DNA of 64,000 nucleotides from an uncultured virus (IMG/VR IMGVR_UViG_3300021138_000003) (IMGVR_UViG_3300021138_000003), one strand, 5' to 3'. Shown: positions 4,995 to 61,176, counted from the stretch's first letter. Program-made: numbers and translations. Notes: a model not told the origin generated them from the sequence alone.

Positions 4995-5133
4995 AGACTT
5001 ACAGCGTGTCTACGATTCATTGCTTGAATGCGGGCCTGACGAAGAAGACTTTGGTTGGGGACCCACATACGAGTTTGCAATGCAACGCAGAAACAATGCA
5101 TTGAGGATTCTTAAGGAAGCGATAGAACGATAA
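4984..5133 (+). CDS. Small hypothetical protein (49 aa)
   Basis: SD GGGAG, MTVEDLQRVY...; below ORF-track length cut-off. Confidence 0.5.
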   Translation: MTVEDLQRVYDSLLECGPDEEDFGWGPTYEFAMQRRNNALRILKEAIER

Positions 5134-5197
5134 ATCAGTTGTATTCTCGACGGAAACCTAGTATAATATATCTTATAAACAACTTAAAGGAAATAAG

Positions 5198-5692
5198 ATG
5201 ACCAAGACTTGTACTATTCTCGTTGGTGTGCCTGCCGCCGGTAAGAGCACTTGGATCAGCAATCAGCCGTTGAAGGACGATACTTATATTGCGTCCACGG
5301 ATCGTGTCATTGAGGAAACTGCTCGTGAATATGGTATGACCTACAACGAAGCTTTCAAGGATCTTATTGGATTCGCTGAAACTGTGATGTGGCGCCACAT
5401 CGATCGTGCTGTGTTGTTTGGTCATGATATCGTCATCGATCGTACTAACATGAGCCGCAAGAGCCGTGCTAAGTTCATCAACTATTTGAAGAACAAGGGC
5501 TATGTGTTCGATGTTGTTGTGTTCGATCATCCCGAAGACAAGACTGAGTGGAATCGTCGACTGAATTCGCGTCCTGGTAAGACCATTCCTGAGAATGCAA
5601 TTCAGTCTATGCTGGCGTCGTTCCAGTTTCCTTCTCATGAGGAAGGTTTCCGCGACATCACTGTGATTAATTCGTTTTTGAATGATGGCTAA
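5198..5692 (+). CDS. Polynucleotide kinase-like P-loop kinase (AAA_33)
   Basis: Walker A GVPAAGKST, STD, IVIDRTN, RRLNSRPGK. Confidence 0.85.
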   Translation: MTKTCTILVGVPAAGKSTWISNQPLKDDTYIASTDRVIEETAREYGMTYNEAFKDLIGFAETVMWRHIDRAVLFGHDIVIDRTNMSRKSRAKFINYLKNKGYVFDVVVFDHPEDKTEWNRRLNSRPGKTIPENAIQSMLASFQFPSHEEGFRDITVINSFLNDG

Positions 5693-5693
5693 T

Positions 5694-6437
5694 TTAAGGC
5701 TTCTTTTTAAGTAACATACCAGAAACCCACTCATTACCAAATGGTTTTTCTTTAGCACAGACTGCTATTACCCCATTATTATACCACTTGTTTCCCAGTG
5801 TAGTGGGTTTCTGGTTTAATCTTCCGTTAGTCCATCCCTCTGGGCATTCTTTAAGAAATCTGGTCTCTATGCCGTTATTGTACCAACTTCTTTCAGAATT
5901 CGTTTTTGCTCGGCGAATGCCTGAAGCCGTTTTCACGGCAGCTGAATGGACCTTTCCATACATCGGATTTAACTCTCCAACATATTTCTCCTTTCGGAAA
6001 TCTGAAATTTTTTTCTTTGTTTCAGATGATAATGTTTTACCTTTATGTGATTCACTAATTTTATTTTTAAATTCGATCGATCGGGATATACCTTTTAATT
6101 TGTGACTTATTTTAGATTTATGTTCATCTGATAAAGGACCAAATTTTTTCCCTTTATTGATACTGCCGCCTGATCCTTGTTCTAAAGTTAAATTGGCCCA
6201 CATGGTGCTATTAACTATATCCCATAATTTACTATAATAAATTCCCCATTCGGTTACTTCCTGAGCGGTTGCACATTCTTTTAAAATTTCTGTAGTTACA
6301 TCATATCCATGCTTTTTGATATGATAGGTCCAACGTTTTCCAGATCCTCGATATTTGTGCGGATCTTTTGATTCTGTTTTTCCGAGATATTTTAACCCAG
6401 TTTTATTGTGAGTTTTGACGTACAAATAAATAGTCAT
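5694..6437 (-). CDS. Free-standing GIY-YIG homing endonuclease with NUMOD3-like and WYNNG repeats
   Basis: IYLYVKTH...KYLGKT, YRGSG, HKSKIS/ETKKKIS/NPMYGKVHS repeats; start at MTIYL with SD AAGGA. Confidence 0.85.
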   Translation of the reverse strand: MTIYLYVKTHNKTGLKYLGKTESKDPHKYRGSGKRWTYHIKKHGYDVTTEILKECATAQEVTEWGIYYSKLWDIVNSTMWANLTLEQGSGGSINKGKKFGPLSDEHKSKISHKLKGISRSIEFKNKISESHKGKTLSSETKKKISDFRKEKYVGELNPMYGKVHSAAVKTASGIRRAKTNSERSWYNNGIETRFLKECPEGWTNGRLNQKPTTLGNKWYNNGVIAVCAKEKPFGNEWVSGMLLKKKP

Positions 6438-6494
6438 GCTGATAGTTCCTTTATAACCGTTAGTGTCCTTGGGTTTTGCCGAACCGCGAAGGAC
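6438..6494 (-). ncRNA. Conserved structured RNA leader of homing endonuclease gene (copy 1)
   Basis: Shares P1-CGC-P2(GGC loop)-C-P1'-CUAA..AUCAGC-AUG architecture with 41171-41225 and 53809-53863, with compensatory changes. Confidence 0.75.
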
Positions 6495-6501
6495 TTTTTT
6501 G

Positions 6502-6530
6502 TTGACTTGATAAAACAAAAATTGTATAAT
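6502..6530 (+). promoter_or_regulatory. sigma70-like early promoter
   Basis: TTGACT-17nt-TATAAT. Confidence 0.8.
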
Positions 6531-6567
6531 ATATTTATATTTTAACACAGATATAGAAAGCAACTTT

Positions 6568-7077
6568 ATGACCACTACCCGAGCAACCCTTTTTCTTGAT
6601 ATGGACGGCGTAGTTGCCGACTTTGACGGCTATGCAAGCAAGGTCCTCGGACAGCCTGCTCCAGATGGTCGCTGGCCCGACGAAGTTTGGTCTAGCATTA
6701 TCCGCGATCCTCGCATCTATGGACTGCTTGAAAAGACCAAAGAAGCAGATGCGCTAGTCGAATACTGTCGTTACCTTAGGGATACACGTAATTACAAACT
6801 CCTGTTCCTAACTGCTGTACCCAAGGGTAACGATGTTCACTGGGCATTCTACGACAAGGTGCTATGGGGCCAAAAGTATTACCCGGATATTCCTGTTCAC
6901 TTTGGTCCGTTTGCCAAGAACAAAAAGGATCACTGCAAGACCGGTGATATCCTGATCGATGATAAGCCCAGCAATATCATTGAATGGGAAAATGTTGACG
7001 GTAAGGGAATCTTGCACAAAGGTGATCTTTTAGAAACCTTGGATATTCTTAAGGGCATTGTTCAAGGCAATGACTAA
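6568..7077 (+). CDS. HAD-family 5'(3')-deoxyribonucleotidase (NT5C-like)
   Basis: LDMDGVVADF, LTA, ILIDD. Confidence 0.85.
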   Translation: MTTTRATLFLDMDGVVADFDGYASKVLGQPAPDGRWPDEVWSSIIRDPRIYGLLEKTKEADALVEYCRYLRDTRNYKLLFLTAVPKGNDVHWAFYDKVLWGQKYYPDIPVHFGPFAKNKKDHCKTGDILIDDKPSNIIEWENVDGKGILHKGDLLETLDILKGIVQGND

Positions 7078-7474
7078 AGTCGTAGTAAACGGCACATTTG
7101 ATATTTTGCATGTCGGACACATTGAATTGCTCCGACATGCAAAAACTGCATATCCCGACGCATTTGTTTATGTGCTAATTGATTCCGATAAACGAGTTCG
7201 AGAACTCAAAGGTCCTGGCCGACCTGTTAATACGCAAGAAGAGCGTCGAACCATGTTACAGGCTCTCCGCTATGTAGATGCTGTAAATACTTTCAAAAGC
7301 GATCAAGAGCTTGCCGATATCATTCGTGGGTTCGAACCTGACATAATGGTCAAGGGCAGCGACTATAAAGACAAGCCAATAATCGGCGCAGAATATTGTA
7401 AAGAAATAGATTTTTATGAAAGACTCGAAGAATTCTCGACAACCAAAAAAATTCAAGATATTACTAATCGGTGA
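7070..7474 (+). CDS. Cytidylyltransferase-family nucleotidyltransferase (HldE/RfaE domain II-like)
   Basis: NGTFDILHVGH, ELKGPGRP, VKGSDY, FSTT. Confidence 0.9.
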   Translation: MTKVVVNGTFDILHVGHIELLRHAKTAYPDAFVYVLIDSDKRVRELKGPGRPVNTQEERRTMLQALRYVDAVNTFKSDQELADIIRGFEPDIMVKGSDYKDKPIIGAEYCKEIDFYERLEEFSTTKKIQDITNR

Positions 7475-8177
7475 TAATTGTACTGATGTGTATCAATACG
7501 GCGTAGTAGACCGTATAAGTCCAGAGGCTCCTGTTCCGATTTTCCGGTTTACACACGTTGAGAATCGACCAGGCATGGTATCAAATGTCAAAAACAATCT
7601 ATTAAACTTAGGATGCACAGTAACGTGTATGCACGGCATCTCTAGCACAAAAACTCGAGTAATTGATTCTAGATCTAGACAACATTTGCTACGCATGGAT
7701 GAAGATGTAGCCAGCCAACCATTGTTATTCGATGATATCGATTTAACTCAAGATTATGACGCAATTGTAGTCAGTGATTACGAAAAAGGTTACGTTAGCT
7801 ACACATTGATTAGAGATCTACGTGATCATTTTGATGGACCTATATTTGTAGATACCAAAAAGCCAGATCTAGAATATTTTGAAGGTTGCTACGTTAAAGT
7901 AAATGCACACGAGCGCGCAGCAGCTACTAGTGTATGCACAGACCTTATTGTAACGCGCGGAGAACAGGGCGCAGAACACGATAACGTAAAATATCCTGCG
8001 CCTGCAACAGAAGTTGTAGACGTTTGCGGTGCAGGTGACACATTTACCGCTGCTCTAGCGTATCAATACCTGAAAACCAAAGATATTAAAGAAGCAATTA
8101 AGTTTGCTATCAAAGCTGGCGCAGTTTCTGTGCAGCATACAGGTGTGTATGCACCAAAATTAGAGGAAATACAATGA
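7416..8177 (+). CDS. PfkB-family sugar kinase (HldE/RfaE domain I-like)
   Basis: RISPEAPVP, SDYEKG, VDVCGAGDTF. Confidence 0.9.
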   Translation: MKDSKNSRQPKKFKILLIGDNCTDVYQYGVVDRISPEAPVPIFRFTHVENRPGMVSNVKNNLLNLGCTVTCMHGISSTKTRVIDSRSRQHLLRMDEDVASQPLLFDDIDLTQDYDAIVVSDYEKGYVSYTLIRDLRDHFDGPIFVDTKKPDLEYFEGCYVKVNAHERAAATSVCTDLIVTRGEQGAEHDNVKYPAPATEVVDVCGAGDTFTAALAYQYLKTKDIKEAIKFAIKAGAVSVQHTGVYAPKLEEIQ

Positions 8178-21442: not shown

Positions 21443-22222
21443 CTAAGACCATCTGGACGTAATCATACCTTTAATCCATCCTTTAGATATGTAGTCTTCT
21501 AAATTTTCTCGGGATATTCGAAGATTCTCGGTACCGTTGTTTATCCATGTTGCACCTTTTTTAACAGGTGCCCATTTCTTTTTAATCCAACCATTTGATA
21601 ATTTTGCTGTTAACTCGCCAATCTCGCACAAACTATATTCATCCATTTCGGCCTGATAAATCCAAACTTTTCCTTGAGTTGGAGATCTAGGAAGTCCTTT
21701 TTTCCAGCCTTCATTAATATAAGCAGACAACTTATTTGGAGATATCATTTTCTTTTCGGTACCTCTATAAACCCAAATGGTATCTGTTGTAGAAGACATA
21801 TTCCTACCTATTATCCATCCTTCTTTTAACATTTTTTCTACCGCATTAGGATGAACAGCGCATCGTTCATTTGTTTCCGAATGATGTAAATGTTTCAATC
21901 CGGTACTCCCTTTATTATAACCACCATAGCCACCTCCTACTATATTATAAACATCTGATCTTTTTAAAAAATCAAGAGTTACTATTTCCTTTTCTTTAGC
22001 AAACATTTCTTCCGGAGTTTCAAAAATGTATAATACCTCTTTTTTAAAAAATTCTCTTCCATATTTTTCTATTGCACGATTTATGTTAGTTCCTGAACCA
22101 CAATAATCATCATTTAGATTATCTGTAGAATGAGCACCTATGTAAAATTTATTGTTCATTAAATTGGTAGTTTGATAAACGGTGTGGAATTTTCTTTTAT
22201 TTTGATGCTTGGTATTTGCCAC
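21443..22222 (-). CDS. Free-standing GIY-YIG (Seg-like) homing endonuclease
   Basis: VYQTTN...FYIGAH, YCGSG, AIEKYG, YN..GG; repeated GW..G / WI modules. Confidence 0.85.
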   Translation of the reverse strand: MANTKHQNKRKFHTVYQTTNLMNNKFYIGAHSTDNLNDDYCGSGTNINRAIEKYGREFFKKEVLYIFETPEEMFAKEKEIVTLDFLKRSDVYNIVGGGYGGYNKGSTGLKHLHHSETNERCAVHPNAVEKMLKEGWIIGRNMSSTTDTIWVYRGTEKKMISPNKLSAYINEGWKKGLPRSPTQGKVWIYQAEMDEYSLCEIGELTAKLSNGWIKKKWAPVKKGATWINNGTENLRISRENLEDYISKGWIKGMITSRWS

Positions 22223-22223
22223 G

Positions 22224-22252
22224 TTGACTTTCCTTAGATAATTCTGTATAAT
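22224..22252 (+). promoter_or_regulatory. sigma70-like early promoter
   Basis: TTGACT-17nt-TATAAT. Confidence 0.75.
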
Positions 22253-22285
22253 ATATTTATGTGTTTGCTTGTAAAAGGATTAATT

Positions 22286-23302
22286 ATGACTATTAAACGT
22301 GTGGGTTTTTGCTGCAAGTGGATTGATCGACCTGATCAGGTTGATGGTATCAAACCCACTGACGATTGTAAGAAATACAACACAGGCGGCACTACTGTGG
22401 CCTGGCTTAATCGACAAAAGCGTGATGTTGCAGAACAAAAACTTTGGGATTTGATGGAACAAAACATCGAATCTATTCGCAAGCTAGTCAAACGAGTAGG
22501 CACCTTAGATGATAATCTCCGCATGGTGCGCATTAGCAGTGACATTCTTCCTGTTTATACTGAGTCTACTTGGGGCTATTTCTGGTTGCGTCCTGATGTA
22601 CGCAACTACTGTGAAAAGCATTTCTCTGCGGTTGGTGATATTGCTCGTGATAGTGGTGTACGCCTTTCTATGCATCCTGGCCAATTTACAGTGTTAGCCT
22701 CTGATAATGCTGATATTGTAGATCGTAGTATTGCAGAATTTGAATACCATGTAGACATGGCTCGCTGGATGGGCTATGGTAAGACCTTCCAGGACTTTAA
22801 GATCAATGTACATATTGCAGGTCGACAAGGTCCTGCAGGCATTCGTCGAGCATTGGCTCGTATGACACCCGAGGCTCGTAATACTCTTACTATCGAAAAC
22901 GACGAAATGACCTGGGGTATTGAGGATAGTATAGAACTAGTTAACGATTGTGCGCTAGTTTTAGATATTCATCATCATTGGATCAAGACAGGAGAATACA
23001 TTGAAAATACTGATGACCGCGTTAAAAGGGTTATTGATAGTTGGCGCGGTCTCCGTCCTGCTTGTCATTTCTCAGTTTCACGCGAAGACTTGCTCGTTGG
23101 ACACTGCGGGGACACTCGACCCGATCTTAACGCATTGCTAGAGACTGGATACAAAAAGGGCAAACTTAGAGCCCATTCTGATTTTTACTGGAATAAATCT
23201 GTAAATGAGTGGGCTCTAAGTTTTAATAATGATTTTGATATAATGTGCGAATCAAAAGGTAAGAACTTGGCCAGTTTTGCACTAGCCAAGTCCATTACTT
23301 AG
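22286..23302 (+). CDS. uvsE: UV-damage endonuclease (UVDE/UvsE)
   Basis: RISSD, RLSMHPGQFTVL, TIENDE, LDIHHH, AHSD, MCESK. Confidence 0.9.
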   Translation: MTIKRVGFCCKWIDRPDQVDGIKPTDDCKKYNTGGTTVAWLNRQKRDVAEQKLWDLMEQNIESIRKLVKRVGTLDDNLRMVRISSDILPVYTESTWGYFWLRPDVRNYCEKHFSAVGDIARDSGVRLSMHPGQFTVLASDNADIVDRSIAEFEYHVDMARWMGYGKTFQDFKINVHIAGRQGPAGIRRALARMTPEARNTLTIENDEMTWGIEDSIELVNDCALVLDIHHHWIKTGEYIENTDDRVKRVIDSWRGLRPACHFSVSREDLLVGHCGDTRPDLNALLETGYKKGKLRAHSDFYWNKSVNEWALSFNNDFDIMCESKGKNLASFALAKSIT

Positions 23303-40204: not shown

Positions 40205-40600
40205 ATGGGTAAAGAAGTACTTGAACACAAGCATCTTATCGTCAGAGCAGAGTTAAATAATCCACCACAATGCGCCGAAGCAATTCAAGACTGGATGAAA
40301 AATCTAGTGGATCAAATTGGCATGAAAATTTTAATGGGCCCCTACGCTGTATATTCTGACATGGTCGGTAATCGCGGACTGACCGCCGTGACTATTATTG
40401 AGACTAGCCATATAAGCGTTCATGTTTGGGATGAATGCGAACCTGCATTAATGCAAATGGATGTTTACACTTGCTCTGAATTGAACATTAGCGATGTATT
40501 TCAAGCCATTGCTCCTTTCGAGCCTGTTAAGACTGAATACAAATTCATTGACCGAGAACATACTCTCACGTTGCTCGAGCAAGGAAAACAAGAATTATAA
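40205..40600 (+). CDS. speD: S-adenosylmethionine decarboxylase proenzyme
   Basis: GLTAVTIIETSHISVHVW, DVYTC. Confidence 0.85.
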   Translation: MGKEVLEHKHLIVRAELNNPPQCAEAIQDWMKNLVDQIGMKILMGPYAVYSDMVGNRGLTAVTIIETSHISVHVWDECEPALMQMDVYTCSELNISDVFQAIAPFEPVKTEYKFIDREHTLTLLEQGKQEL

Positions 40601-41170
40601 TTTTTTCTTGCAATGGTCGTTATGCCATCTAGTTATATTTCCAATGTTACTTTGTTTACCACAATGTTTGCAAACCGAAATATGACAAGAGGCATGGCGA
40701 CCATCAGCAAGCATTTCTTTTTGTAAGTTGCCGCCGACCCAGTGGTGCGTTCCATCGGCTACACGTTTTCTATTTGAAGTTCTCTGGATTTCACCACCTA
40801 TGAAATTATGAGTTCCTGATTCAATATTTTTTCTTCTAGATTCTTCTTGCCTTTTCAGAGTTTCTTGAGAAATGTTTTGCTTCAAAAAGTTATGCTTACC
40901 TGCATCTATTCTCCGTGCATTACTTAATTTTGCAATTTTACTTTTTTCAGTCGAAGAGAGTAAATTTTTCATTCTAAAAGCAATTAATCTGCAGGCGCCA
41001 TAATCGCCTTGTCGAAAATGTATCTCATAGTGTTCTTGTAATGTTACTGACATTAAATTTTTTGGGTCGTTATTTAATTTATTACCATCTATGTGATGAA
41101 TTTCATTCCCTTCGGGAATAGGACCATAGTGTTTTTCATAAACTTGTCTGTGATTACTATAAATATTCAT
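40595..41170 (-). CDS. Free-standing HNH homing endonuclease
   Basis: HRQVYEKHYGPIP...IHHIDGNKLNN...NL...EH; GTHNF repeats; C-terminal CKHC..HNDHC. Confidence 0.9.
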   Translation of the reverse strand: MNIYSNHRQVYEKHYGPIPEGNEIHHIDGNKLNNDPKNLMSVTLQEHYEIHFRQGDYGACRLIAFRMKNLLSSTEKSKIAKLSNARRIDAGKHNFLKQNISQETLKRQEESRRKNIESGTHNFIGGEIQRTSNRKRVADGTHHWVGGNLQKEMLADGRHASCHISVCKHCGKQSNIGNITRWHNDHCKKKL

Positions 41171-41225
41171 GCTGATACTCCTTTGCAGTATTAGAATGAG
41201 TGGGAATGCCAGTTCCGCGACTCAT
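41171..41225 (-). ncRNA. Conserved structured RNA leader of homing endonuclease gene (copy 2)
   Basis: AUGAGU-CGC-GGAA-CUGGCA-UUCC-C-ACUCAU-U-CUAAUACU-GCAAAGG-AGUAUCAG-C-AUG. Confidence 0.8.
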
Positions 41226-41228
41226 AGA

Positions 41229-41240
41229 TATTTATAAATA
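41229..41240. promoter_or_regulatory. Overlapping divergent T4-type late promoters
   Basis: Palindrome TATTTATAAATA gives TATAAATA on both strands (HNH gene leftward, spanins rightward). Confidence 0.65.
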
Positions 41241-41263: not shown

Positions 41264-41749
41264 ATGTGGTTATTACATTTATTACCAATGGGGCTAATTG
41301 CTATTATTGTTCATGGAATTTTACTTTTAGGAGTTGTTGCGTTAGCTGCTAGTTATATTGTTAGGTATATACCAACAATAGGCATTTACGCACTTCCTGT
41401 TAGGATAGCTTCGATTGCAATTTTAGTCGTTGCAGTATATTTAGAAGGTGTTTACGGTACACATATGTGGTACCAGGACCAAGTTAAAGACCTGCAGGCG
41501 GCGGTTGCAAAATCCGAAGAACAAAGTAAGACACTTAATACCGAACTTTCGACTGCAATCCAAAAAGATACTGTAACTATCAAAGATCATACAAACACAG
41601 TCCATACCGAAGTCGTAGAGAAATTAGTGCCAATTGATAAAGATTGCACCCTAGATCCAATGGTTGTCACTGTACTAAATCATGGAGCAACTTCACCATT
41701 AAATACTGCTGCAAAAGCCCAAACACCGGCACAAGGAGATCAAAAATGA
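41264..41749 (+). CDS. Inner-membrane spanin (Rz-like)
   Basis: N-terminal TM helices, coiled coil, C-terminal Cys; followed by a lipoprotein gene. Confidence 0.65.
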   Translation: MWLLHLLPMGLIAIIVHGILLLGVVALAASYIVRYIPTIGIYALPVRIASIAILVVAVYLEGVYGTHMWYQDQVKDLQAAVAKSEEQSKTLNTELSTAIQKDTVTIKDHTNTVHTEVVEKLVPIDKDCTLDPMVVTVLNHGATSPLNTAAKAQTPAQGDQK

Positions 41750-53207: not shown

Positions 53208-53807
53208 TTATTTTAATCGAGTTCTAGGTAGCATCCCAGAAACCCACTCATTGCCAAATGGTTTTTGTTTAGCACAAACTGCTATAACTCCATTATTGTA
53301 CCATTTGTTTCCTAATGTAGTAGGTTTCTGGTTTAATCGTCCTTTTGTCCATCCCTCTGGACATTCTTTAAGAAATTTAGAATCTTTTCCATTATTGTAC
53401 CAACTTCTTTCAGAATTTGTTTTTGCCCGGCGTATACTCGAGGCTACTTTTACACTATCCGAATGTGTTTTTCCAAACATACCATTTCTATTACCCTTTC
53501 GAATTTCAGATAATCTTTTTAATGTCTGATCAGAAAATTTAAGACCCGAAGCGCCTTCGCCGCCGTCAGTTTTATTGATTAGAATTCCAGTGTTATTATC
53601 TTTTCTGCCGTACCATCGAATGTATCGACGCTCAATTGCAAGAGCTCCTAATTCAGTCAGATTTTGTTCAAGAAATACAATTCTAGATAAATCCTTCGGA
53701 GGACGATGGTGTTTGTGATTTTGAAATGCCCGCATTTCTTTTCCCTTTCCGATATAATAAGGGGAACCATCTCTGCGTATATAGGCATATACATAATAAA
53801 TATTCAT
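53208..53807 (-). CDS. Free-standing GIY-YIG homing endonuclease with NUMOD3-like and WYNNG repeats
   Basis: YYVYAY.R.DG.PYYIGKG, E...I..YGR, L.N.TDGGEG, NGMFGKTHS. Confidence 0.9.
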   Translation of the reverse strand: MNIYYVYAYIRRDGSPYYIGKGKEMRAFQNHKHHRPPKDLSRIVFLEQNLTELGALAIERRYIRWYGRKDNNTGILINKTDGGEGASGLKFSDQTLKRLSEIRKGNRNGMFGKTHSDSVKVASSIRRAKTNSERSWYNNGKDSKFLKECPEGWTKGRLNQKPTTLGNKWYNNGVIAVCAKQKPFGNEWVSGMLPRTRLK

Positions 53808-53808
53808 T

Positions 53809-53863
53809 GCTGATACTCCGCATAAGTATTAGAGTAGTTGGATACGCCAATATCGCGAACTAC
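53809..53863 (-). ncRNA. Conserved structured RNA leader of homing endonuclease gene (copy 3)
   Basis: GUAGUU-CGC-GAUA-UUGGCG-UAUC-C-AACUAC-U-CUAAUACU-UAUGCGG-AGUAUCAG-CA-AUG; TATAAATA 5 nt upstream. Confidence 0.8.
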
Positions 53864-53948
53864 ATCATTATTTATATCATCTATTGACTTCTCTGTGGAT
53901 ATATAGTAATAAACGTTTCTATATTATTTAAAGGATTATAAATACAGT

Positions 53949-55460
53949 ATGAATAGAAAAGATCCAGTGAAGTCAACAGAAGTGTATATCGATCTCGATG
54001 GTGTGCTAGCAGATTTCTTTTCAGAATATGCTAAACTTGCTGGAATACAGTCGGGTAACTATCGAGATATTCCACCAGCAAAGACTGATCCTACATTAAA
54101 CAAAATGATCGGAACAGATTTCTTTGCACGACTTCCAAAATTTCCCAGTGCCGATCAGCTTATTAAAATTACTGTAAAATTATTCGGTCGATACCATATC
54201 TGTTCCAGTCCGCTTCGTGGTGATCACGAAAATACTGAGATCCAGAAAAAAGAATGGATTAAAAAGCATCTAAGTCCGCCACCTGCTACTATTATCATCA
54301 CACCTAACAAGGCAAAATACGCCGTACAACCAGACGGCACTCCTAATATTTTAGTCGACGACCGCGGTAGCAACATTAGTGCATGGGAAGCCAAGGGTGG
54401 CATCGGTATCAAATATCAAGCCGATGAAGACGGATTGGAAAAAGTAATCGAAGGGTTCGCAAGGGCACGTAAAATTCTGCGCGGGGAACTTGAACACGAA
54501 CCACAGACACTAACAACTAAGAACCGCAGTACTGGACAAATTGTTACTAAAAGTGGTCACAACGATGCAGACGAAGATGATGTTGCAGAAGCCGACGATA
54601 TTAACCCACGTTTTCAGCAAAATCCTATTATGGCTAATGAAGCGGTTCGATCCAATCCTACCGGAATCGAACATACAGAAACTGAAAGCTATGGTCCCTG
54701 GATTATTACCACAACAACTACACCTAGAGTAATGGGGAAAATTACCAATGGTCAGTTATTATATGTAGCTAAAATCGCACACAAGAAAGAAAAAAATAGA
54801 GTTTTATATGCTACCGGGAAAACACAAGGTGAAGCTACTGATGCTGCAATTAAATTAGTAACACAAGATATTAGATCAGATAATCCAGACGATTATAAAA
54901 CTTTTATTGCAGACTTAAATTCGCCATTTCATAAAGAATTATATGATCCCCATTCGGGTGATTATTTTAAAATTTCTCGGTCACCGAGTGGTCCTGTTTT
55001 AATAATGTTAGGACCGGAATGGTATAAAACTCTAGGCAGCGAAGTAGCTGAGTTAGGTTTTAAGAAAGCAGCAAATAGAACCGAAAATCAAGGCAAAGAT
55101 TATGTGTTTTTGGGATTCACAGTTTCTCCAGTGGTTGTTAAAACTCTCGGCTTGATCCCAAATATGAGATATGGATTAGAATTTTTAGAAAAAGACGACG
55201 ATGGAAACTCAGTTTTTAAAATGATTCCGGATTCCCGTGCTCATGGAATTTCAGATAAGCAACGACTACCTTTTCCGGCACTAACTTTAGCCGCTACTGG
55301 TAAAGTCGACTTGCCTAATATCAAAGAATCTGCTAGTAGTGGTGCTACTTCTGCTGGAGCAGTTGCTAGTGCTCCTGCGCAAGGTGGCGGTTGGTTGTTC
55401 GGAGGTACTGTAGGTGCTCCAAAAACTAAAAAGAAAAAAGCCAAGGTGTTAAAAAGATGA
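53949..55460 (+). CDS. HAD 5'-nucleotidase (NT5C-like) fused to additional modules
   Basis: IDLDGVLADF, CSSP, NILVDD; late promoter TATAAATA at 53937; C-terminal ESASSGATSAG and basic tail. Confidence 0.75.
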   Translation: MNRKDPVKSTEVYIDLDGVLADFFSEYAKLAGIQSGNYRDIPPAKTDPTLNKMIGTDFFARLPKFPSADQLIKITVKLFGRYHICSSPLRGDHENTEIQKKEWIKKHLSPPPATIIITPNKAKYAVQPDGTPNILVDDRGSNISAWEAKGGIGIKYQADEDGLEKVIEGFARARKILRGELEHEPQTLTTKNRSTGQIVTKSGHNDADEDDVAEADDINPRFQQNPIMANEAVRSNPTGIEHTETESYGPWIITTTTTPRVMGKITNGQLLYVAKIAHKKEKNRVLYATGKTQGEATDAAIKLVTQDIRSDNPDDYKTFIADLNSPFHKELYDPHSGDYFKISRSPSGPVLIMLGPEWYKTLGSEVAELGFKKAANRTENQGKDYVFLGFTVSPVVVKTLGLIPNMRYGLEFLEKDDDGNSVFKMIPDSRAHGISDKQRLPFPALTLAATGKVDLPNIKESASSGATSAGAVASAPAQGGGWLFGGTVGAPKTKKKKAKVLKR

Positions 55461-57486: not shown

Positions 57487-57623
57487 TGGAAAATAAAATG
57501 ATAAAAGAAGAAAGAGAATTTCTCTGCGAATCGTGTATCGATATCGATTATTGCACTACACGTTGCAAACTCCAAGAACAATTAAGTGAAGATGTAGAAG
57601 TCATTCGGGAGGAATCTGAATGA
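57486..57623 (+). CDS. Small Cys-rich protein
   Basis: CESC...C...C; overlaps polB start (ATGA). Confidence 0.45.
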   Translation: MENKMIKEEREFLCESCIDIDYCTTRCKLQEQLSEDVEVIREESE

Positions 57624-59251
57624 GTTACGTTGACGCACGATGGGACCGCGACAATGATGTCGTGCAAGTCGTAGAGCGCGACCCAAAATTAGGTCGCATC
57701 TACCAAGAATATCCGGCAAGATACGTGTTCTATTATCCAGATCAAAAAGGTAAGCACACAAGCATTTTCGGAGATCCGTTAAGCAAAGTAGTTGCTAAAA
57801 ACTGGAAAGAATATACCAAAGAACAAAAGATTCATAGTGGTCATAAGCTGTTTGAGAGTGACATTAATCCAGTATTTCGGTGTCTAGAAGAGAACTATCT
57901 AGGTCGAGACGAATCTAAACTCAACGTTGCATTTTGGGATATCGAGGTGGACTTCGATCCTGAACGAGGATATGCAAGTCCCGACGATGCGTTTATGCCA
58001 ATTACCGCAATAGCAGTTCACCTACAATGGCTAGATACATTAGTATGTTTGGCTGTTCCACCTAAAACCTTAACTATGGCGGAGGCGCAGGAGTTAATCA
58101 AAGATATTCCTAACACAATTCTATACGAAACTGAAGCAGAAATGTTAGACACATTTCTAAATCTAATCGAAGATGCAGACGTGCTTAGTGGTTGGAACAG
58201 TGAGGGATTTGATATGCCCTACACTGTGAATCGAATCATTAAAACGTTAAGCAAGGAAGATACTCGCAGATTGTGTTTGTGGAATCAATTTCCAAAACGT
58301 CGTGAATATGAAAAGTACGGAAAAGCTGCCGTCACTTATGATATTTCAGGGCGTGTACACCTTGATAGTCTCGAACTTTATCGTAAGTATACATACGAAG
58401 AACGTCATAGCTATCGATTAGATGCTATCGGTGAAATGGAAGTCGGTGAAACTAAAACGGTATACGAAGGCACACTTGATCAGCTTTACAACAATGACTT
58501 CCGAAAATTCATTGAATATAACCGGCAGGACACTGCACTACTCGATAAGTTAGATAAGAAATTAAAATTTATCGATCTTGCGAACTCGATTGCACACGAA
58601 AACACCGTTCTATTGCAAACAACAATGGGCGCTGTTGCTGTTACAGAACAGGCAATTATTAACGAAGCCCATAGACATGGTCTAATTGTTCCAAGTCGCA
58701 CACGCAAAGATGATCGTGGCGATACGCAGGCCGCAGGTGCATACGTTGCATATCCCAAGAAGGGATTGCATGAATGGATTGGGTCGATGGATATTAACTC
58801 ACTGTATCCATCAGCAATTCGTGCGCTGAATATGGGTCCAGAAACAATTATCGGACAGCTACGACCAGATTATACTACTCCGGAAATTGAAGCAAAAATG
58901 GCTCGAGGAATGAGCTTTGCTGCTGCGTGGGAAGGCAAATTTGGTAGTAATGAATACGAATTTGTCATGAATCGAGACAAAGCCCACGATATCATTGTCG
59001 ATTGGGAAGACGGATCGACTGATGTGCTTAGTGGTGCTCAAATTTACGATGTAATTTTCGAAACTAACAAGCCGTGGATGATCAGTGCCAATGGAACTAT
59101 CTTTACCTACGAAAAGGAAGGTATTATTCCAGGTCTTCTAAAACGTTGGTATGCGGAGCGGCAATCATTACAGGCCGAACTGAAGTCATATATTGAACTT
59201 TCGTCCGGAATTGACATTGATGATCAATTTATAGAGTCATTGACAATATAA
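57620..59251 (+). CDS. Family B DNA polymerase, N-terminal half (exonuclease + motif A)
   Basis: ExoI DIE, ExoII WNSEGFD, ExoIII YNRQD, motif A DINSLYPS; ends after first fingers helix. Confidence 0.95.
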   Translation: MSYVDARWDRDNDVVQVVERDPKLGRIYQEYPARYVFYYPDQKGKHTSIFGDPLSKVVAKNWKEYTKEQKIHSGHKLFESDINPVFRCLEENYLGRDESKLNVAFWDIEVDFDPERGYASPDDAFMPITAIAVHLQWLDTLVCLAVPPKTLTMAEAQELIKDIPNTILYETEAEMLDTFLNLIEDADVLSGWNSEGFDMPYTVNRIIKTLSKEDTRRLCLWNQFPKRREYEKYGKAAVTYDISGRVHLDSLELYRKYTYEERHSYRLDAIGEMEVGETKTVYEGTLDQLYNNDFRKFIEYNRQDTALLDKLDKKLKFIDLANSIAHENTVLLQTTMGAVAVTEQAIINEAHRHGLIVPSRTRKDDRGDTQAAGAYVAYPKKGLHEWIGSMDINSLYPSAIRALNMGPETIIGQLRPDYTTPEIEAKMARGMSFAAAWEGKFGSNEYEFVMNRDKAHDIIVDWEDGSTDVLSGAQIYDVIFETNKPWMISANGTIFTYEKEGIIPGLLKRWYAERQSLQAELKSYIELSSGIDIDDQFIESLTI

Positions 59252-59920
59252 TCGTAATTGTTCAAGTGACGAAACGAAAAGAAAATTATCAACCAGTTTT
59301 TGTTTTTTGTAAATCCTTTCTAGATACCAAGGCTTGTTAATGGTGCTTATTTCAATATATAAATTTTTACTTTTGATATATGCATCACATTCTTTTTTTG
59401 AATTATTTGGATATTTTTTATGAAGTTGTATATCGTCACTACCATATATAGACATCAAATATTCGCAACAATCACGTTCTATTTGCGAATAATAAGTTCT
59501 CCCATTTTCAGTAACAGGTATACTCCAGGTGGGACGCAGGACACGAGGTTTGCATTCAAGACACCTAACGGTTTTGCGCAATGCTCTATCGAGAGTTGTA
59601 GTGATACAATTCCCACACAAATGAGTTAGTTTTATCAAAGAATATGAATTAATGTATTCATTACTATCTGAAAAACTCCAGCCTATATTTTTAAGTTGTT
59701 GTTGAACAATCGATAAAGGTTTACGAATACGAAGTTTATAACAATGTCTACATTCTTTACCGTCTCTGAGAACACCGGGACGTGTCCTCCAGACATTGTT
59801 ACAAACAAGACATAAATGATCAATAGGAGTATTCATATTAATATATCGATCAAGCGGAACAACTTTTCTAGGTTCAATCATATTGGTATATTGTTCATGT
59901 GTATATTTTATATTAGACAT
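59237..59920 (-). CDS. Putative homing endonuclease (Zn-ribbon repeats + PD-(D/E)xK-like nuclease) inserted antisense within polB
   Basis: CLVC, CRHC, H.CG, CLEC; SQIE...CDAY...YIEI nuclease-like motif; AT-rich. Confidence 0.7.
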   Translation of the reverse strand: MSNIKYTHEQYTNMIEPRKVVPLDRYINMNTPIDHLCLVCNNVWRTRPGVLRDGKECRHCYKLRIRKPLSIVQQQLKNIGWSFSDSNEYINSYSLIKLTHLCGNCITTTLDRALRKTVRCLECKPRVLRPTWSIPVTENGRTYYSQIERDCCEYLMSIYGSDDIQLHKKYPNNSKKECDAYIKSKNLYIEISTINKPWYLERIYKKQKLVDNFLFVSSLEQLRLYCQ

Positions 59921-59967
59921 ATTTCTCTCGCTAAATAGTTTCATATTTAGCATTTAAAGGAAAAGAA

Positions 59968-61176
59968 ATGCAAGCAATAGAAATTAAAAAATTAATTAAA
60001 GAAAAAAACGTCAAAGAATTACGCAAGTTGATACACGCAGGAATTTTAACTGTTAACGACGGGAAAATTTCTTTAACTGATAAAAATTATGCCAATGCTC
60101 AAATAGAATATTGGGATAAACGTCAGCTAGTTAAGAAGATTAACTTGAACAGTTTGTATGGTGCCATTCTTAACGCAGGTTGCAGATTCTTCGACAAACG
60201 TATCGGTCAAAGTACCACGCTCACTGGTCGTCGTATTGCTCGCCACATGGCAGGTAAGGTTAATGAATATATCACCGGAGATTACGATCATATTGGTAAA
60301 AGTGTAATTTACGGTGACACTGACTCTGTTTATTTCAGTGCATGGCCTATTTTGAAAACTGATATTCAAAAGGGATTAATTCCTTGGAACAAGGACACAG
60401 TTATTCAACTATACGATCAGATTTCAGACGAAGTAAACTCTACATTTCCACAATTCATGCTAGATGATTTTCATTGCCCTAAGTCGCGCGGCGAAGTTAT
60501 TAAAGCAGGTCGTGAAATTGTTGCAGACCGTGGATTGTTTATTACAAAGAAGCGTTATGCAGTTCGTTATTACGATAAGGAAGGCAAGCGTCAAGACAAG
60601 GATGGCAAGGAAGGCAAAGTCAAAGCAATGGGCTTAGATCTCAAGCGTTCAGATACTCCGGAATTCATGCAAGACTTCTTAAGTGAAATCCTCGAAAGAG
60701 TACTAGACGGTGCTCCTGAGCAGGAAATCCTAGATCGCATCAGCGAATTCCGAACTGCATTTAAGGCCAGACCAGGCTGGGAAAAAGGATCGCCAAAGCG
60801 AGCAAATAACATTGCAGAATATCAGGCCAAAGAAAAGAAGTACGGTAAGGCAAATATGCCCGGACACGTTCGTGCTAGTATTAATTGGAACACCCTTAAA
60901 ACCATGCATGGTGACAAATACAGTCAGCAGATTGTCGACGGTATGAAAGTTATTGTCTGCAAGGTAAAGGATAATCCGCTCGGCTATACTAGTGTCGCAT
61001 ATCCGGTCGACGAACTTCGGTTGCCGCCATGGTTTCGAGAACTACCATTTAATCATGCCGATATGGAAACAGCGATTATTAACAACAAACTAGATAATCT
61101 TATCGGCGTGCTAGACTGGGATTTAGAATCAACTACACAAAACAATACATTTGGTAGTTTATTTTCGTTTGATTGA
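59968..61176 (+). CDS. Family B DNA polymerase, C-terminal half (motifs B and C, thumb)
   Basis: QLVKKINLNSLYG, YGDTDS, KKRYA; own SD AAGGA. Confidence 0.95.
   Translation: MQAIEIKKLIKEKNVKELRKLIHAGILTVNDGKISLTDKNYANAQIEYWDKRQLVKKINLNSLYGAILNAGCRFFDKRIGQSTTLTGRRIARHMAGKVNEYITGDYDHIGKSVIYGDTDSVYFSAWPILKTDIQKGLIPWNKDTVIQLYDQISDEVNSTFPQFMLDDFHCPKSRGEVIKAGREIVADRGLFITKKRYAVRYYDKEGKRQDKDGKEGKVKAMGLDLKRSDTPEFMQDFLSEILERVLDGAPEQEILDRISEFRTAFKARPGWEKGSPKRANNIAEYQAKEKKYGKANMPGHVRASINWNTLKTMHGDKYSQQIVDGMKVIVCKVKDNPLGYTSVAYPVDELRLPPWFRELPFNHADMETAIINNKLDNLIGVLDWDLESTTQNNTFGSLFSFD

Follow-up and report, generated by a model that had tools for sequence, protein, structure and literature searches.

In the insertion sequence IS10, an outward promoter near the 5' end of the transposase gene yields RNA-OUT, a short folded RNA directed against the ribosome site of RNA-IN. 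In IS200, the RNA art200 lies opposite the tnpA 5' UTR and blocks translation initiation (PMC4513863). Homing endonucleases are toxic if over-made; in T4, the timing of promoters and hairpins that mask the ribosome site keep them in check. A 2010 review describes, for the homing endonuclease genes (HEGs) of the T-even phages and Aeh1 (I-TevI, I-TevII, I-TevIII, mobE, and segB), a late promoter together with a hairpin that sequesters the ribosome binding site, the Shine-Dalgarno (SD) sequence and AUG being buried in a helix of the longer early and middle transcripts; it also states that T4 had yielded no small regulatory RNA with a characterised function (PMC3014915). Dassa et al. (2009) described hairpins upstream of GIY-YIG and Vsr-like free-standing HEGs from ocean and lake metagenomes, present in 15 of 16 UTRs. 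Ten of these UTRs contain the late-promoter element TATAAATA, and two conserved motifs, read on the sense strand, pair with each other (PMC2677866).

The late-promoter sequence is TATAAATA in T4 and NATAAATA in T4-like cyanophages (PMC2984593). In cyanophage S-PM2, an antisense RNA of ~225 nt, CfrI, lies opposite an HEG and links the HEG to psbA (PMC2984593). A further relevant class of elements is that of the PeSLs, composite terminator/early-promoter motifs of T4-type phages that flank variable genes and have been proposed as recombination points (PMC4122927).

The window analysed here is a stretch of 64,000 nucleotides from an uncultured virus (IMG/VR IMGVR_UViG_3300021138_000003). Besides HEGs, it encodes RNA ligase, baseplate, clamp-loader, and split DNA polymerase genes. 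The 57 bases at 6438..6494, termed copy C, directly precede on the minus strand a free-standing HEG of 247 aa (5694..6437) with a NUMOD3 motif (3e-08). By eye, this HEG also has a GIY-YIG-like N-terminus, and its remote tblastn matches are annotated as homing or GIY-YIG endonucleases. Read directly, the minus strand from 6494 to 6438 is GUCCUU (6494-6489)-CGC-GGUU-CGGCAA-AACC-C-AAGGAC (6470-6465)-A-CUAACGGUU-AUAAAGG-AACUAUCAG-C (6438), followed by AUG (6437-6435), letter for letter as in the original prediction, which had taken the motif for a structured leader of the endonuclease mRNA. In this HEG-sense orientation, the 5' arm of helix P1 (6494-6489/6470-6465) is followed by CGC (6488-6486) and by helix P2 (6485-6482/6475-6472) with its loop (6481-6476), and C6471 lies between the 3' arms of P2 and P1. 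A linker A (6464) leads to 'P3' (6463-6455/6447-6439); the SD sequence AAGGA is located at 6451-6447, and C6438 precedes the AUG. A covariance model of the family, R1, assigns copy C 71.5 bits (E 1.1e-17).

On the plus strand, the same region reads as a different unit. In order, it contains the heptamer ATAAATA (6426..6432), 5 nt, G6438, hairpin 1, hairpin 2, a U6 run, and TTGACT-17-TATAAT. The heptamer resembles a T4-type late promoter, occupies HEG codons 2-4, and faces away from the HEG. A predicted RNA of ~63 nt, with putative ends at 6438 and 6500, folds with a minimum free energy (MFE) of -16.5 kcal/mol, and RNAalifold also returns the fold. After G6438, positions 6439-6447 pair with 6455-6463 to form hairpin 1, whose loop CCUUUAU (6448-6454) is the complement of the SD region. 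U6464 separates it from hairpin 2, in which 6465-6470 pair with 6489-6494, G6471 with C6487, and 6472-6475 with 6482-6485. Positions 6465-6494 thus present a 12-pair bulged hairpin, and six T residues follow directly (6495..6500; an A6 run before P1 on the minus strand), which is the layout of an intrinsic terminator. A simple terminator scan of the window did not report it, probably because the stems in that scan are without bulges.

Immediately after the U6 run lies a sigma70-type early promoter (6502..6530, plus strand), present as originally noted and matching the consensus at 11 of 12 positions; it precedes an NT5C-like gene (6568-7077, plus strand) with a Pfam NT5C match. The minus-strand TATAAATA at 6532..6539, 37 nt upstream of P1, was likewise found where it had been reported. 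Its letters overlap, on the complementary strand, the extended -10 region of the early promoter, and its position there may be incidental. Taken singly, the folds of copy C are unremarkable (minus strand, z = -1.40; plus strand, z = -1.77), and support for structure comes from comparison across the family rather than from folds of single sequences.

The window contains two other copies, both also on the minus strand. Copy A (41171..41225; 68.2 bits) heads an HNH_3 HEG at 40595-41170 and lies between an HEG-side TATAAATA (41236-41229, minus strand) and a facing TATAAATA (41158-41165, plus strand). Copy B (53808..53863; 65.2 bits) heads a NUMOD3 HEG at 53208-53807, with an HEG-side TATAAATA at 53876-53869 (minus strand) and a facing ATAAATA at 53796-53802 (plus strand). 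R1 finds exactly these three copies in the window, the next best match scoring 11.6 bits. Likewise, the loose pattern CTAA-N12-24-TATCAGC-N0-1-ATG occurs three times in the window, where 0.04 occurrences are expected, and none of 100 shuffles reaches three. Copy C had been called the most divergent of the three. Its P1 and P3 do differ from those of A and B, while CGCG, C, CUAA, and UAUCAGC are kept; the label holds within the window only, since across the family the P3 type of copy C, CUAAC.GUU/AACUAUCAG, is the commonest class and its R1 score is the highest of the three. The nearest record (G001; 26% of sampled words shared) holds a copy identical to copy C.

Beyond the window, the strict pattern CGCG-N13-C-N7-CTAA-N12-24-TATCAGC-N0-1-ATG is found at no fewer than 121 IMG/VR loci and at least 120 metagenome loci. 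In the far larger metagenome set, 12 of 87 new unique matches resembled chance and were dropped, leaving 75 further members. Contig ends in this set, viewed as possible transcript ends, did not cluster by eye and carry no information on transcription. The alignment A2, from which R1 was built, comprises 95 unique sequences, 3 from the window and 92 from other loci, so that R1 was trained on strict-pattern matches. In five large viral contigs, R1 detects 4, 8, 3, 2, and 13 copies. Most of these fall outside the strict pattern, having CACG in place of CGCG, or AAUCAGC or CAUCAGC in place of UAUCAGC, and copies within one genome have P1 in common.

Among 72 unique full-length downstream ORFs, 46 have Pfam matches and 26 do not. 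The matches are to NUMOD3 (25), HNH_3 (11), HNH or HNH_5 (8), GIY-YIG (4), SegE GIY-YIG (1), the I-TevI DNA-binding domain (1), and DUF7487 (2). Homing-endonuclease-type domains are present in 44 of the 46, and only DUF7487 in the other two. From this spread it follows that the cassette heads HEGs of unrelated folds. The idea that the hairpins belong to a generic terminator class next to which HEGs happen to land was considered and rejected: in a 333-kb contig, all 12 hairpins of the cassette type belong to cassette copies.

The carriers form a clade of uncultured large T4-related phages. By clamp-loader similarity, the nearest isolate is the Pseudomonas jumbo phage PA5oct (56% identity), followed by Atu_ph07, SCTP-2, RsoM2USA, and XacN1. 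Megablast of positions 5000-8000 against phage isolates gave no match, as did blastn of a 110-nt cassette. R1 returned no hits in PA5oct, Atu_ph07, RsoM2USA, or XacN1, nor in Synechococcus phage B23, Vibrio phage SRILMA, or Rhizobium phage P10VF; in Salicola phage SCTP-2 there was one weak hit (32 bits) that resembles the P1/P2 hairpin only. Passages of the PA5oct paper report TTGAC/TATAATA promoters and contain nothing on the cassette motif. A resemblance to a ribozyme or riboswitch was considered; Rfam 15 gave no matches for the whole window on either strand, with only chance-level scores near the motif (E 3-6: rli60, CRISPR-DR63, and ZFAT-AS1). A full-text search of the openly available literature found no description of the family.

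Comparison across the family indicates that base pairing in the element is under selection. In A2, the 18 pairs of the original model, read on the HEG strand, are standard in 88.5% of cells, compared with 67.6% after shuffling, and none of 500 shuffles reaches the observed value; controls in which the pairing is slid give 27-45%. The covariation score is 0.555 versus 0.152 in shuffles (again 0 of 500). Both-sided changes occur in 6 of 6 P1 pairs and 3 of 4 P2 pairs among the 95 unique members, although cell counts overstate the number of independent events because the sequences share ancestry. These results bear out the original view that pairing is selected, and also that copy C reflects conserved structure rather than recent duplication. 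The P2 loop is found in both orientations; for example, CGCCAA occurs 12 times and its complement UUGGCG 7 times.

The strand on which this structure is selected is, however, probably not the one proposed. When the 18 pairs are mirrored in the reverse-complement alignment, 98.5% are standard, as opposed to the 88.5% on the HEG strand. By helix, the values for the plus and HEG strands, respectively, are 99.6% and 94.7% for P1, 97.6% and 78.2% for P3, and 98.7% and 99.7% for P2. The pairing of P1 was left unconstrained by the search pattern; an A·C read on one strand becomes a G·U when the other strand is read. In HEG orientation, P1 in the 95 members has 540 Watson-Crick pairs, 28 A·C, 0 G·U, and 2 others; the 75 further metagenome members have 425, 22, 0, and 3. 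The non-Watson-Crick pairs in this orientation thus total 50 A·C and 0 G·U. Part of the asymmetry of P3 is built in, since the CTAA/TCAG pattern fixes the invariant A·C at its position 3 on the HEG strand. Position 5 of P3 on that strand is C·A in 62, U-A in 29, and another combination in 4 of the 95. The CGCG to CACG bulge variant, seen in 8 of 30 R1 matches, would correspond to a change from G-C to G·U on the opposite strand.

Folding energies agree with the pairing. Of 115 unique members, 110 fold to a lower MFE on the strand opposite the HEG, where the mean is -17.3 kcal/mol, compared with -11.9 kcal/mol on the HEG strand. P3 alone averages -5.8 kcal/mol on the plus strand and -1.8 kcal/mol on the HEG strand. 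The window copies fold on the plus strand at -16.5 (copy C), -18.0, and -14.1 kcal/mol, with two hairpins each, and on the minus strand the three copies give -11.4, -12.4, and -13.0 kcal/mol. RNAalifold of the three copies, the check suggested originally, recovers P1/P2 on the minus strand (11 pairs), but P3 is absent there; on the plus strand, both hairpins form, with 20 pairs. Some observations run the other way. At position 6 of P3, 8 of 95 members, copy C among them, show a G·U when the HEG strand is read and hence an A·C in the plus-strand helix; for P2, the HEG-strand counts are 5 G·U versus 1 A·C. The rarity of G·U pairs on either strand would also fit selection on both RNAs or on the DNA. 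Nevertheless, the fixed A·C mismatch in P3, usually accompanied by a second, and the wobble asymmetry of P1 suggest that the conserved fold is probably selected mainly on the strand opposite the HEG. Selection on structure stands as originally proposed, and its assignment to the mRNA leader probably does not.

Conservation extends on both sides of the helices. Upstream of P1, the family consensus has ATAAATA at -12 to -6; among 111 unique members, the gap between the end of TAAATA and P1 is 5 nt in 72 and 3 nt in another 21. Past the AUG, the sequence ATG-A-N-TATTTAT, to +12, contains the reverse complement of the same heptamer. Of the 111 members, 101 have TATTTA at a distance of 4-9 nt downstream of CAGC, and about 10% have no second heptamer. 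Its reading frame varies: in 87 sequences it encodes xIY in 63, YL in 10, and I/L-F-I in 6, and it is absent from 8. Because TATTTA is kept in all three frames, the constraint is on nucleotides and not on protein, and a conserved N-terminal peptide (MxIY) was rejected as the explanation. TATTTA also precedes unrelated nuclease folds.

The two heptamers could in principle pair in a read-through RNA, ATAAAUA with UAUUUAU, to form an additional helix, P0. This was rejected as the main explanation. Both heptamers are present in 89 of the 111 members, the HEG-side heptamer alone in 9, and the facing heptamer alone in 12. In addition, the variable bases next to each heptamer do not covary, as judged by eye. 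Solitary occurrence and absence of flanking covariation argue for two promoters rather than a helix. In the 333-kb relative, ATAAATA occurs 120 times, of which 62 lie within 60 nt upstream of an ATG on the same strand, whereas five control heptamers have 3 of 32, 6 of 52, 12 of 83, 2 of 61, and 8 of 79 occurrences near starts. Seventy-two of the 120 are fully intergenic, though by a crude gene call only 9% of the contig is non-coding. By its placement, ATAAATA behaves as a promoter in this clade, presumably one with late timing. T4-type late transcription starts at the sixth nucleotide after the heptamer. With this spacing, the HEG transcript would start at the first base of P1, and the opposite transcript at the G before hairpin 1 (6438 in copy C). 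The facing promoter might be thought to serve the neighbouring gene. The upstream neighbour is opposite to the HEG at 54 of 80 loci, and the facing heptamer is present at 46 of 53 loci with an opposite neighbour; however, it is also present at 25 of 26 co-oriented loci, and driving the neighbour was therefore rejected as its general role.

Copy C departs from the majority on the HEG side. The heptamer next to P1 is missing in 13 of 111 members; in 11 of these, a run of four or more A residues abuts P1, and 12 retain the facing TATTTA. GTCAA precedes the A-run in 5 of these 13, and in 7 of 12 such metagenome members (12 of 25 in all), mostly where P1 is GUCCUU. These sequences place copy C in a recurrent sub-lineage whose putative HEG-side promoter has been replaced by an A-run. 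The P1 sequence that made it look divergent thus marks this sub-lineage, in which a predicted terminator is joined to an early promoter, and copy C appears as the clearest terminator form of the cassette.

We propose that the element is a portable HEG head cassette of ~80 bp in which the facing heptamer starts an antisense RNA of ~60-65 nt that has its own terminator and blocks ribosome binding on the HEG mRNA. We give this reading a probability of about 0.55; it builds on the architecture, the covariation, the strand asymmetry, the frame-independent second heptamer, and the restriction to HEGs described above. On the HEG strand, the full cassette would comprise (N)ATAAATA, 5 nt, the P1/P2 hairpin with its CGC and C bulges, a weakly folded SD region, and the AUG, with another ATAAATA in reverse complement in codons 2-4. 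From the facing late promoter, an RNA would arise that begins at the foot of hairpin 1, whose loop would act as an anti-SD. Hairpin 2 and a U-rich tail would end the transcript; in most members this tail would be complementary to the HEG promoter, and in copy C it would be the U-run. Complementarity between the antisense RNA and the HEG mRNA would be complete from the mRNA 5' end across the SD to -1 of the AUG, and pairing with the leader would block ribosome binding and keep nuclease translation low. The cassette would, in addition, halt antisense transcription running through the HEG. The A·C mismatches of the HEG strand would leave the ribosome site of the free mRNA open and would avoid a terminator-like hairpin ahead of the coding-region UAUUUAU. 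In this scheme, the two transcription starts, termination, pairing, and repression are predicted steps.

Two features fit the antisense reading less readily. The tail in most members, AYYUUUAUUUAU, is moderately U-rich and is already explained by the HEG promoter. A pure antisense partner also does not need the invariant CGCG, C, UCUAAY, and AUCAGC, which could instead reflect a protein site or some tertiary contact. A more tentative extension, which we consider doubtful, is that every cassette is a late-expressed antisense RNA gene and that the RNAs act both in cis and in trans. The anti-SD hairpin and the initiation letters hardly differ among the copies of one genome, which number up to 13, and the RNAs could therefore impose a genome-wide multicopy inhibition, setting a ceiling on total homing-endonuclease translation as the number of copies grows, with the hypervariable P2 hairpin tuning which copies cross-talk. 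If true, this would be an RNA-based copy-number governor for selfish phage nucleases, in which the complement of one promoter forms the terminator tail of the partner.

Other readings account for parts of the evidence. P1/P2 could act only in the sense leader, stabilising the late HEG mRNA as 5'-terminal hairpins are known to do, with the SD region tuned and the opposite strand functionless. The spacing of the HEG-side heptamer, which puts a T4-type start at the first base of P1, speaks for such a role, as do the stability of P1/P2 on the HEG strand (mean -8.9 kcal/mol) and the G·U pairs of P2 on that strand. What makes a sense leader alone unlikely is that P1 wobbles exclusively in the other orientation and that P3 is both weak and unpredicted by RNAalifold on the HEG strand. 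Such a leader also leaves unexplained the frame-independent TATTTA in codons 2-4 and the A-run of the copy C sub-lineage, where no promoter abuts P1. Alternatively, the cassette could be only a terminator or insulator that stops antisense transcription through the HEG and so leaves the phage transcriptionally unaffected, with no regulatory pairing. In copy C, the hairpin, U6, and TTGACT-17-TATAAT on the plus strand are PeSL-like (PMC4122927), GTCAA and an A-run recur in the promoter-less members, and the upstream neighbour is frequently opposite to the HEG. For termination alone, however, the conserved first hairpin and the conserved facing heptamer would be superfluous. This heptamer is kept at co-oriented loci, where antisense read-through from the neighbour is unexpected, and in the 333-kb contig such hairpins never stand alone; as a complete account, termination seems improbable.

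Two further possibilities place the function in the DNA or in the act of transcription. Inverted repeats could be used in single-stranded or cruciform DNA, or the ~80 bp could be a homology patch for the shuffling of HEG cassettes. About 95-99% of pairs are Watson-Crick on either strand, the occurrence of one cassette before unrelated nuclease families requires recombination at its 3' edge, and both the two orientations of the P2 loop and the common P1 of copies in one genome are in keeping with a DNA-level element. Duplex DNA would not be expected to show 50 A·C to 0 G·U, homology patches have no need of compensatory changes, and promoter-like heptamers stand at both ends, positioned to transcribe the element, all of which render a DNA-level function very unlikely. 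The convergent heptamers could also act by themselves. Convergent promoters at close spacing are known to interfere, as in coliphage 186. Here, 89 of 111 members have putative late promoters ~70 bp apart that face each other, with ~5 nt between each promoter and the foot of a helix, so that polymerases might collide or occlude one another and the RNA structures would be secondary. Collision alone explains neither the compensatory changes in three helices nor the 21 of 111 members with a single heptamer, copy C among them, and is the least probable of the readings considered. Under the antisense reading, which we prefer, the 57 bases at 6438..6494 are best annotated on the plus strand as a terminator/small-RNA unit, besides the mRNA leader.

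Compared with the systems outlined above, the cassette shares with the T-even and Aeh1 HEGs a putative late promoter, RNA structure at the translation initiation region, and, by prediction, low nuclease synthesis. Nevertheless, its SD lies in the loop and 3' arm of a weak sense helix (mean -1.8 kcal/mol), and the fold is better on the other strand. Burial of the SD and AUG of the I-TevI/mobE type is not seen, as P3 is absent from both the minus-strand MFE structure of copy C and the RNAalifold consensus; nor would a late start remove the 5' arm of a helix, as the arms of P1/P2 and P3 all lie downstream of the predicted start. The hairpins of Dassa et al. also precede free-standing HEGs in metagenomic phage-like loci, but they were read on the sense strand, and the letters of their motif 1 given in Supplementary Figure S4, to which the comparison is limited, are unlike those of the cassette family (PMC2677866). 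Copy C on the plus strand is arranged like a PeSL, its stem-loop and U-run leading directly into a sigma70-type early promoter (PMC4122927). Unlike PeSLs, the cassette hairpin is joined only to HEG starts, has family-specific bulges, and is flanked mostly by late promoters. CfrI, like the predicted RNA, is antisense to an HEG in a T4-like phage, but as described it is not a two-hairpin unit of ~60 nt at the start of the HEG (PMC2984593).

The closest parallels are found in IS10 RNA-OUT and IS200 art200. In these systems, and by prediction in the cassette, an outward promoter lies at or inside the 5' end of a gene for a mobile nuclease or transposase, and the RNA, like that predicted here, is short, stably folded, and complementary to the 5' end and ribosome site of the mRNA. 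The cassette differs in that it belongs to phage homing endonucleases, that both of its putative promoters are heptamers of the T4 late-promoter type, and that its transcripts are predicted from sequence. Furthermore, its U-rich tail would be the complement of the sense promoter, the overlap of ~57 nt would stop at -1 of the AUG, and several internal letters are invariant across hundreds of copies. If the prediction is correct, a built-in antisense RNA is a different solution to the restraint of homing endonucleases from that of T4, one used as in insertion sequences but found before unrelated nuclease families at hundreds of loci, and compact in design, as the complements of its promoters would serve the other strand as a U-rich tail and as codons. 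The element would provide annotation with a new RNA family, one that marks the starts of HEGs in metagenomic phages. With its predicted antisense RNA, the cassette would be a new and widespread member of the antisense-controlled mobile nuclease genes typified by IS10 and IS200.

The helices of the cassette, the head element of about 80 bp that precedes homing endonuclease genes (HEGs), differ in how they vary among copies within one genome. The viral contig G006 (loci L160-L176) carries 13 copies, and in 12 of these P1 is GUAGUU/AACUAC or one base removed from it, whereas P2 is unlike in most of them. This pattern suggests either concerted evolution of the copies or a constraint on P1 at the level of sequence, with P2 free to vary or diversifying. 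Across the family, the six-base P2 loop (6476-6481 in the window) is found in both orientations: CGCCAA occurs in 12 members versus 7 with its complement, UUGGCG, and CGUCAA in 12 versus 2 with UUGACG. It is as if the tip of the P2 hairpin can flip, and such a flip would leave kissing between a sense and an antisense copy unaffected.

At eight loci (L015, L023, L024, L028, L067, L068, L082, and L083) the cassette is intact by pattern and the downstream ORF has only 8 to 75 codons; these short ORFs may be decayed HEGs whose cassette has been retained. A lone hairpin on the minus strand of Salicola phage SCTP-2 (locus L158; MF360958.1, 292616-292666), which scores 32 bits with the family covariance model R1, has the CGC and C bulges of the cassette and the loop CGGCAA. 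It lacks P3, the heptamers, and an HEG, and precedes a hypothetical gene of 77 aa.

Two minus-strand nuclease genes of the window have no cassette. One, HNH-endonuclease-like (59237-59953), lies between the two plus-strand ORFs of a split DNA polymerase (57620-59251 and 59968-61176), both of which match phrog_262. The other is a SegE/GIY-YIG-like HEG (21443-22222); the region upstream of it (22222-22290) holds, on the strand opposite to the gene, an early promoter (GTTGAC...TATAATATATTTAT) that closely resembles the one at 6502-6530.

The T4-type late-promoter-like heptamers show arrangements of their own. At 53938-53951, the ATG of a 503-aa gene (53949) stands just 4 nt past the end of ATAAATA; unless this start codon has been placed wrongly, the transcript would have almost no leader. 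At 41229-41240, the palindrome TATTTATAAATA yields back-to-back TATAAATA heptamers on both strands; the minus-strand heptamer would serve the HNH gene, and the plus-strand one is 24 nt upstream of a plus-strand gene at 41264. The related 333-kb phage contig often has a comparable third heptamer, placed some 12 nt past the one on the HEG side.
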